Source: Carcharhinus longimanus
Taxonomy: Eukaryota
Assembly (NCBI GenBank): GCA_030264375.1
Contig: JASCQW010000150.1
Span: 22,091,319 to 22,155,318 of the forward strand
DNA: 64,000 nt
Direction of reading: 5' to 3'
Below are positions 23,364-26,700 of this stretch, piece after piece. The notes beneath the pieces are model-generated. The model did not search any database and was not told the DNA's origin. It worked only from the letters and a program-made list of their open reading frames with translations. The translations under genes were made by a program, and so were the position numbers. Positions within the stretch are counted from its first letter, which is position 1. The number at the start of each line of letters is the position of its first letter.

Positions 23364-23451
23364 CAGGTCGCTGACCAGTGGGAGGGATTTACGCCGAGGC
23401 TTAATGTCAGGCATGCTGTCAATGCTACGCAGAAATTTAACCGCTGCTCCC
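23364..23451 (-). CDS. UNC13A: UNC13A alternative exon B (GAAVKFLRSIDSMPDIKPRRKSLPLVSDL)
   Basis: Acceptor CTGTAG|G after a long U-rich tract and donor CTG|GTGAGA. 88 nt, phase 2-0, open frame. Paralogous to the adjacent exon at 23624-23702. Confidence 0.88.
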
Positions 23452-23623
23452 CTACAGTTTTAAGTGAAACAAAAGACAAAAGAAAACAAAACAAAAGTAA
23501 ACATACATAAAAAAAAAGGAACAGAGAGAATTACTGGCAAGCAAGGCAACAGGCACAATTCCATGACTATCAGATGTCTCAGTGCATAGTGGCAGGTCAC
23601 TGTGGAGAAAAGAGATGTCTCAC

Positions 23624-23702
23624 CAAATCACTAACAAGATTTTTGGGTTTTTTCTTTCGAAGATCTGGCATACTGTCAATACTGTAAAGCCCACCGCCAG
23701 GC
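23624..23702 (-). CDS. UNC13A: UNC13A alternative exon A ([26 protein letters not shown])
   Basis: Acceptor CTTTTCTAG|G and donor TTG|GTGAGA. 79 nt, phase 2-0. Continues LWFKGG-PGGGL as in mammalian Munc13-1. Confidence 0.92.
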
Positions 23703-26700
23703 CTAGAAAAGATAGCAATAGTACAGTGAAGTATGTGCACACAGTGGGGAAAAGAACTCCTTGAGGCCTAGCCAATAATCATGTACAATACAGAACAAAA
23801 TGTAAACAATATTACCAAAACTGCATACTGTATTTATTGAGATAAAGAAATGAAAACACATGCATTTCTCAAATCTCTTTTTTAGGTATTGAAGGGGCAC
23901 ATTGTCAATAATTACTCTGCAAATTTTTATTTTGATCAAGGAGGAGAGAAACTCGTCCAATTTAAAGTGGTATTTACTAGTTAAAATACATTTTTCAATA
24001 TTGATTTCCAGATTTTCCTTATACCATCTTTCCAGATTCATCTAAGAGTCTCACATAAAGTAATACTGAACAAAAATAAATTTATAGAAATTGGTCAGTT
24101 TTATTTTGAACTCAAAGTTGCCATCCACATTTTAGTATGTAACCTCCTCAATTACTTTGCAATGCAAGTTTATTTTGTAACTTTGTTAATTGCTGCTAAA
24201 GCTTCAGTGTATTCAGAACAGACAACAGCATATTTGCATACCAAACTCTATTTGTAGGTAAATCAAATTACTTAAAATAACCAATATTATAAACTACCAT
24301 CCCATTTATCCTAATGTTTTGATAATTCCTTCATTTGTTTTAAGCTTCAAAACATCATCCAGCATTACTTTGCCAGTCCAGAAAGGCCAAAGTTTCCATT
24401 CTAACACAGCCCATCCAATTGATGGGTCATTAAAATAATGGGATCAATGCACGTTCTATGTTTGGAGTGCATGGGCACTTTAAATGATTTTGTCCGGTCA
24501 CACGGCAAAATATACCCTAAATATCATTAACTACATCATCTGAAATAAAATGCCTGTTTTTGACTGAGTATTTGAGTGATCATCTTGCTGTTATTTCTCA
24601 TCCTCACATATGTACACACCATCACAGTGTTTAGTTTCAAAACTCACTGGTTATATGGAGTAGGAGCTCAACATAAAGTATGAGATATACAAATGTGTTT
24701 TTTTATTGCGCAAACTTTCACTCAAGTGTTTAGTAAGACACAATCTTCTAGGAAGGGCCAAATGCACGTGATACTTGGCACACCAATCAATATCTTCTTC
24801 TATAACATGGTGAACAGGAACTAACTCACTCACTTGTATGCTTTGACAACTTAGGTCATGTAATGCAATCATTCATCAAGTCTCAACTGAGCACTAAGCA
24901 TACATTCACACAGTGTCTTTAATATGATTGTAGCTGTTCTATGTGCCATAAGTGGACATGATGCCCAAATGATGGGTATTTGAACCATGGAGTTAAAATT
25001 TGTGAGCTTCTTCATACATTCAAATGAATGGAACTTAAGTGCACAAATAAATCCTTAAAAGCCATAAATCATGTTCTCTTTACTTAGGCACTGTAGCCAT
25101 ACCAAGCATTTGGAGCAGCTTGAGGCAATTATGTTTCTATATAGAATTTATGTAGGGCAGTTAATGCAATACTTATGAGGTAGTACCCGTGTGTGTGTGT
25201 TTTATCCTCAAATGAGTCTTTCTAGAGTGCCTAACAACATCGGCCAGTTGTCCTTTTCCACGTAACAATGGTTATGGTAGGCTGGCCAAAGTTAATTTCT
25301 CCCCTTCATGAAGGGCCAGAAGTTGAAAACTGTTGCTGGTCATTAGACACTATTCCTTTTGATTTAAGTGGTGTCTACCAACCCTCACCTCCACATGGCC
25401 CTTCAACAATGTGATGATTCTGGTTTTGGGTCCCATGTGCTCTTGCTTTCAGGACTACTCCCTAAAAAGTCTAAAGGTCAGTTAGTTGTGTGTGCACATG
25501 TGCTTGTAAACAAATCTGGGAGGGTCTCTCCTCTGGAAGCACATTCAAAGTTTCTGAACCCTTTGCCAAAAGATGCAAGTCAATCAAATGCCACAGACTA
25601 TTGTCACTACAATGGGAGTGGCAATATTTATCAAAAAGTAAAATTCACATCAGAGAATTGCTCATCTATCTTTCCAATTTTCAGAAAAATTGCATCAAAG
25701 CACATCTTCACACTTTATGGATATTTAATTAGCATTTTCTGGGATGTAGGAAGATCAAGCTTAAGCCATGTTTTACGATTGTAAGGATGGCAAAACTGTT
25801 AGCATTCACCATTGTAAAACTGTTAGCAATTTCTGGCATCCACAAATGTAGGTAAATGCAGAAGTCCTCAATTCCCTGCTCCTCTTCAGGCTGTACTGCT
25901 GAAGGCCTTGCTGATGGAAATCAATTAAAAATTGCTAATTTGACATGAAATCCCACTTTTTATGCCATAAGTCTCACTGGATGCACCTTTGAAATTATTA
26001 CACCTTGTTGAATGAGCTGTAACTTTGCTTTCCAAAGACATAAAGTCACAATTATTATTGAACAACCTTTCTGGTCCTGAAAAGCTAATTGTCTATTTGC
26101 GTAATGTCAAAGTTTTAATCATTGTTCAACATTACATAATTTTTTAAAATATTTTTTATTTGAAGTTTATGGTATTTCAGCTTCTACCTTCATTGAAGCA
26201 CATGTCCTAATCTTTAATTTTCTTTCTACACTATTATAGTAAATAAATGTAAAAAACCTACTTGTTACTTCCTGGTTTAATATCTTGGAAAATCTTTCAA
26301 TTGTTATGTCCAGAAGACATATGTATGTCTATGTTATCCTGCTACTTCACATTTTTTTTAAATTTAAAGCCTTTTAAAAAAAGGCTTTACACTGACTGAA
26401 ACCTGACACCAAGACTCTCACAAAAGGAATTTCAAGCCTGCAGAAAACTGCAAGAATCACATTATCCCTAAAGATGCACCAATGCACCCTGTGGCCACAA
26501 AAATTAAATTGCAAGAAAATACACAAAGACCCTTTACATTTCTAAGGCAGAGCTCTGAACAATGGAGACAATACGTTAGCAAGGACAATGGGACCCTGAA
26601 AATTCTGAAATTTATTAATACAATATTAGCCATCTCAAGAATCCAAATCAGGATTTTGGGCAAACCCAGGGGAAAAGTGGTAGTTTTGTTACATGAGCCA

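Follow-up and report, generated by a model that had tools for sequence, protein, structure and literature searches.

UNC13A of Carcharhinus longimanus carries two adjacent exons, A and B, which are very probably spliced as a mutually exclusive pair. Overall, they are likely to be frame-exclusive tandem duplicates whose alternation changes short motifs of a linker that is predicted to be disordered and that directly follows the calmodulin anchor of the protein. The window analysed here is the whole stretch of 64,000 nucleotides (contig JASCQW010000150.1), on the minus strand of which lies the 5' half of UNC13A from a cartilaginous fish (Table 1). The exons of the window and named shark UNC13A proteins agree at 85-100%. 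Orthology to UNC13A, and not to UNC13B or UNC13C, is indicated by the relatives being named UNC13A and by a clade support of 100/99 in a tree from which two short rows were left out, in which Anolis UNC13B forms a long branch, and which does not place the hagfish gene with UNC13A. The UNC13B and UNC13C paralogs of the shark sit on two other contigs (C1 and C163, respectively).

Table 1. Exons of UNC13A around the A/B pair, in coordinates of the window.
Feature	Position	Strand	Description
First calmodulin anchor helix exon	30487-30395	-	5' boundary approximate
Upstream exon	28537-28482	-	56 nt, ends WFKGG; Trp aligns with second calmodulin anchor
Exon A	23702-23624	-	79 nt, phase 2-0, ttttctag|G...TTG|gtgaga; vertebrate-type linker exon
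Intron between A and B	23623-23452	-	172 nt
Exon B	23451-23364	-	88 nt, phase 2-0, actgtag|G...CTG|gtgaga; putative ancestral type with AAVKFL and RRKSLP
Ala-Met microexon	4978-4973	-	6 nt; in or out in public isoform models
Downstream exon	3560-3489	-	72 nt, SLVQS...
C1 domain exon	2351-2132	-	downstream of the 3560-3489 exon

The homology of A and B is apparent from the IDSMPD...LVSDL framework common to both. Their coordinates, spacing, phases, splice sites and peptides, as given in the initial annotation of this DNA, were all confirmed on the window sequence. Both exons have lengths of 1 mod 3 and follow an upstream exon of 2 mod 3, and hence both have phase 2-0. Spliced in silico, the transcript with A alone remains open through the C1 exon, and so does the transcript with B alone. 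Inclusion of both exons introduces a stop four codons into B, while skipping of both produces a TGA across the 3489/2351 junction, with or without the 6-nt exon. These two stops had been proposed beforehand and are reproduced here, as is the conclusion drawn from them, that the reading frame allows exactly one exon of the pair. The Ala-Met microexon is itself present in some isoform models and absent from others, from hagfish to birds.

Public protein models, which are automated, display the same either-or use. Models with A only and models with B only occur for one and the same gene in eight of the 12 taxa tallied. Among elasmobranchs these are Amblyraja radiata (1 A and 8 B models; e.g., RefSeq XP_032902756.1 with A and XP_032902754.1 with B), Chiloscyllium plagiosum (3 and 2) and Scyliorhinus canicula (1 and 1); among reptiles, Chelonia mydas (2 and 9) and Crotalus tigris (6 and 10); among birds, Pezoporus wallicus and Corvus cornix (1 and 1 in each). 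In these seven jawed-vertebrate taxa, the A and B models follow the same upstream exon. The eighth taxon is the hagfish Myxine glutinosa (1 A and 3 B), in which either-or splicing is only presumed, since the A-type model starts with a different N-terminus; downstream, its two types of protein agree at 400 of 400 residues. Automated gene models of this kind rest on RNA-seq. The whole vertebrate set comprises 216 proteins, 144 with A, 67 with B, three with both and two with neither. The three carrying both (P0068, P0069 and P0077, from two lizards and a stork) are named "hypothetical protein", have filler between the exons and show A followed by B, as in the shark; they are likely annotation artefacts of an exclusive pair. 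B is not found in the models of Callorhinchus (0/8), caecilians (0/6), gar (0/8) and geckos (0/5), all of which have A; either the distribution of B is patchy or annotation misses it. Reads from four of 24 runs, mapped to a 20-kb stretch at 85% likeness and swamped by repeats, give a low depth in both exon bins in all four runs; in this same mapping, one contig listed covers A with flanking intron, and no junction is among the rows displayed. The RNA type is a guess for 18 of these 24 sequencing runs (shares 0.10-0.20).

Exclusivity would be maintained by competition of A and B in splicing, transcripts with both exons or with neither being removed by nonsense-mediated decay, of which premature-stop transcripts are targets. 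A physical constraint is also conceivable, although we consider it doubtful: the branch point of B would lie within ~50 nt of the donor of A and preclude joining of the two exons, as in OGDH 4a/4b. The threshold of ~50 nt from the upstream donor is that given in the available part of PMC7969005. The intron between the exons is indeed short, its pyrimidine tract is long, and of the branch-point-like hexamers located at +27, +45, +54 and +93 from the donor, the first two would satisfy this distance. However, AGs at -128, -117 and -84 intervene between the +27 and +45 hexamers and the acceptor, and no AG occurs in the 82 nt that precede the acceptor AG. This pattern favours +93, the hexamer bordering the AG-free stretch, a position over the threshold. 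A docker/selector RNA structure was rejected, as 9, 36 and 38 of 60 shuffles pair at least as well as the best long-range 12-bp duplexes between the flanking introns. The intron flanks of A (23490-23810, minus strand) are conserved in a related contig, at ~71% when read through as a protein (P0035), and this read-through includes the 5' part of the 172-nt intron. A TGCATG, which we take to be an Rbfox-type site, occurs at 23864. Together, the conserved flanks and the TGCATG are possible splicing regulatory elements.

In human isoform 1, exon A corresponds to residues 481-506. It starts five residues past the anchor Trp 476, which occupies position 26 of the calmodulin motif when Trp 451 is taken as position 1, and the C1 domain starts at 554; the segment thus lies between the calmodulin site and C1, as initially stated. 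The 1-5-8-26 calmodulin motif of Munc13-1 includes Trp 489 in the rat protein, according to the accessible parts of PMC7017353 and PMC9501808. The spacing of the anchor Trp residues varies, with the second at position 26 in human, 27 in turtle, 25 in crow, and 29 in shark and hagfish. Solved chains of the C1-C2B-MUN region start ~8 residues after exon A, and none of the seven PDB sequences matched at E <= 1e-50 extends over the segment. In both AlphaFold models the linker has a pLDDT below 50, with means that are low overall (46.9 and 66.5). These predictions fit, if weakly, a disordered motif.

In exon B, an AA[VI][KR]FL segment and a KSLP motif are common to the whole set of 70 B-type proteins from vertebrates (67 with B and three with both exons). 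The former is invariant and specific to B, and had been missed by the initial annotation. Exon A instead has a Gly-rich start, and a Pro where B has the Ser. The pair had been proposed to toggle an RRKS phospho-motif. RRKS is present in sharks, rays and hagfish (24 of the 70 proteins, 19 from elasmobranchs and five from hagfish) and absent from reptiles and birds, every B-type protein of which reads GRKS (46 of 70), while in scorpion the Ser is replaced by Pro. Since R-R-x-S is lost in reptiles and birds, the conserved toggles are Ser versus Pro and a hydrophobic-basic versus a Gly-rich stretch, and not the full PKA consensus. Mechanistically, next to the calmodulin anchor, B would exchange a Gly-rich stretch for a hydrophobic-basic one, and would place a phosphorylatable Ser (K-S-L-P) at the Pro position of A, by which the regulation of vesicle priming would be tuned. 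We hold this functional interpretation, a motif swap tuning vesicle priming with a kinase that is not fixed as PKA, only tentatively.

A more specific proposal, which seems to us rather improbable, is that B adds an R-R-x-S coupling cAMP to vesicle priming, and that this is the reason for keeping both exons. R-R-x-S is the PKA consensus, and RRKSL fits it. This pentapeptide is present in the elasmobranch and hagfish B-type proteins counted above as well as in 18 of 19 distant representatives with a segment of B length (arthropods where named), and A has a Pro at the aligned position; a PKA site is plausible from these sequences in sharks, hagfish and insects. However, reptiles and birds have kept the exon without the Arg at -3, the scorpion Unc13 lacks the Ser itself, and phosphorylation of the segment was not found in the literature searched by title and start of abstract. 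Less probable still, B might be a phospho-Ser docking site for 14-3-3 proteins, with Arg at -3 and Pro at +2, controlling active-zone anchoring as in Bassoon. The S-x-P part is found in all 70 B-type vertebrate proteins and in 18 of the 19 B-length representatives. The mode-1 motif, as given in the available part of PMC3597591, is RSXpSXP, but position -2 of the segment is Arg and not Ser, the Arg at -3 is gone in reptiles and birds, and binding of Munc13 to 14-3-3 was not found in the same title and abstract-start search.

A second alternative exon is observed in the same gene, in the C2A-to-calmodulin linker (58476-58351, minus strand). It is 126 nt long, bordered by AG/GT and frame-preserving, and models of sharks, gar, turtles, snakes and birds either contain it or lack it. 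A Ser following Arg is frequent in it, the reptile and bird versions having RRTS, RQxS and RRS, and its motif occurs in none of the 63 mammalian UNC13A proteins. By its sequence, it is a putative kinase-site cassette, better conserved than exon B.

Both exons of the pair are conserved. Exon A is identical to that of the skate Amblyraja (26/26 residues) and to that of Callorhinchus, and shares 20/26 residues with each of human, turtle, crow and hagfish. Exon B is likewise identical in Amblyraja (29/29), with 27/29 residues retained in turtle, 25/29 in crow, 23/29 in rattlesnake and 26/29 in hagfish. The acidic linker exon, in a comparison that leaves out Crotalus and its short search segment, reaches 92/120 against Amblyraja, and the exons flanking B reach 13/31, 6/18 and 14/24 between shark and hagfish, less than B itself. 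Because both exons have 100% matches in UNC13A proteins annotated in other cartilaginous fish, the pair is not a product of chance. At the level of protein identity, this amounts to purifying selection on A and on B, as had been suspected from the differing synonymous sites. That one exon is dead or marginal in Carcharhinus longimanus and only the other is used is very improbable: the repeat-crowded mapping revealed no junction reads, and the models lean to B in Amblyraja (8/9) and to A in Callorhinchus (8/8), but the splice sites of both exons are intact, three elasmobranchs have both modelled separately, and the identities to skate and hagfish show neither exon to be dead.

The mutually exclusive pair is probably of early-vertebrate origin, the duplication preceding the split between hagfish and jawed vertebrates. 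The presence of both exon types in hagfish is a sign of age that was absent from the initial annotation. Mammalian UNC13A uses the A type, as had been proposed: among 63 proteins, 62 have A, none has B and one is without the segment. Shark UNC13B and UNC13C have one A-type exon each, and a B-type exon was not found in ~100 kb upstream of their C1-domain exons; the stretches searched contain 14,892 and 12,636 N, respectively, but the 2.5 kb that follow the A-type exon are free of them. Outside vertebrates, 19 of 42 motif-bearing distant representatives have a segment of B length, and the five looked up are all arthropods (hoverfly, firefly, mosquito, wasp and scorpion). The core of B shares 17/20 residues with hoverfly Unc13, and that of A 12/19. 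The proposed resemblance of B to the insect motif is thereby upheld with the hoverfly protein, the earlier claim having named Drosophila. The simplest reading of these comparisons is that B would be the ancestral-type exon and A the vertebrate type. The ancestral exon would have been of the B type, like that of insects, and would have duplicated before hagfish and jawed vertebrates parted, and A would have become the general vertebrate exon. Both would have been kept by UNC13A in sharks, rays, reptiles and birds, and A only in shark UNC13B and UNC13C and in mammalian UNC13A. Loss of B from mammalian UNC13A is likely, as judged from protein models, where absence does not equal loss (compare the geckos).

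The catalogues of tandem duplicated exon substitutions (PMC8373072, PMC9741552 and PMC5740500) bear on this absence. The supplements searched, which for PMC9741552 consist of one small file, do not list UNC13. This is explained by the lists being human; two of these human catalogues include SNAP25 and OGDH in the supplements seen, which serve as positive controls and reinforce the absence of B in human.

The A/B pair resembles the known homologous mutually exclusive exons of SNAP25 and of OGDH (4a/4b) in that the exons are adjacent, homologous and of the same phase, that use of both or neither is forbidden by the frame, and that the arrangement is ancient and located in a neuronal gene. It differs in swapping a predicted disordered linker and not a part of a folded domain, and in the apparent loss of one exon in mammals. 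The Munc13-1 regulatory region, with its 1-5-8-26 calmodulin site and its polyE autoinhibition, has been described for this same protein (PMC7017353, PMC9501808 and PMC12184661), in which the exon lies just past the second anchor Trp; the accessible parts of these papers mention neither an alternative exon nor a function for the IDSMPD segment. RefSeq and UniRef models of UNC13A from sharks, skates, turtles, snakes and birds contain the same two exons, one at a time; they are automated, and a curated description, dating or function was not found with them. By the criterion that the initial annotation itself had set, the novelty of the isoforms is thus reduced, A-only and B-only forms being already present in automated models of eight of the taxa tallied above. 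In the literature searched, which includes the available part of bioRxiv 10.1101/2025.10.16.682770, the pair, its age and its mammalian loss are undescribed; subscription papers and databases of the VastDB type lie outside this search and could list the event. The pair is therefore a real member of a known exon class, apparently undescribed in papers, and the surprise it offers is limited, as this splicing class is familiar and automated annotation already contains the isoforms.

Priming of synaptic vesicles depends centrally on Munc13-1, which, to our knowledge, has been investigated almost exclusively in mammals, flies and worms. The hagfish lineage split off ~500 million years ago, and a pair kept since then marks a motif of 26-29 residues in the linker, outside the solved structures matched. 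Exchanging A for B in rescue neurons would amount to a natural swap experiment, and the Ser is a candidate in fly Unc13 as well. In its furthest-reaching form, which we regard as unlikely, the pair would be a Munc13-1 splicing switch older than jawed vertebrates and retained in non-mammals. B would then provide a phospho-Ser motif inherited from the bilaterian ancestor and constitutive in the Unc13 of insects, together with an amphipathic segment altering calmodulin N-lobe binding, and its loss in mammals along with the 126-nt cassette exon would have left a simplified mammalian Munc13-1. Should this ancestral-switch reading be true, the Ser of insect Unc13 would be a possible direct target of cAMP signalling.
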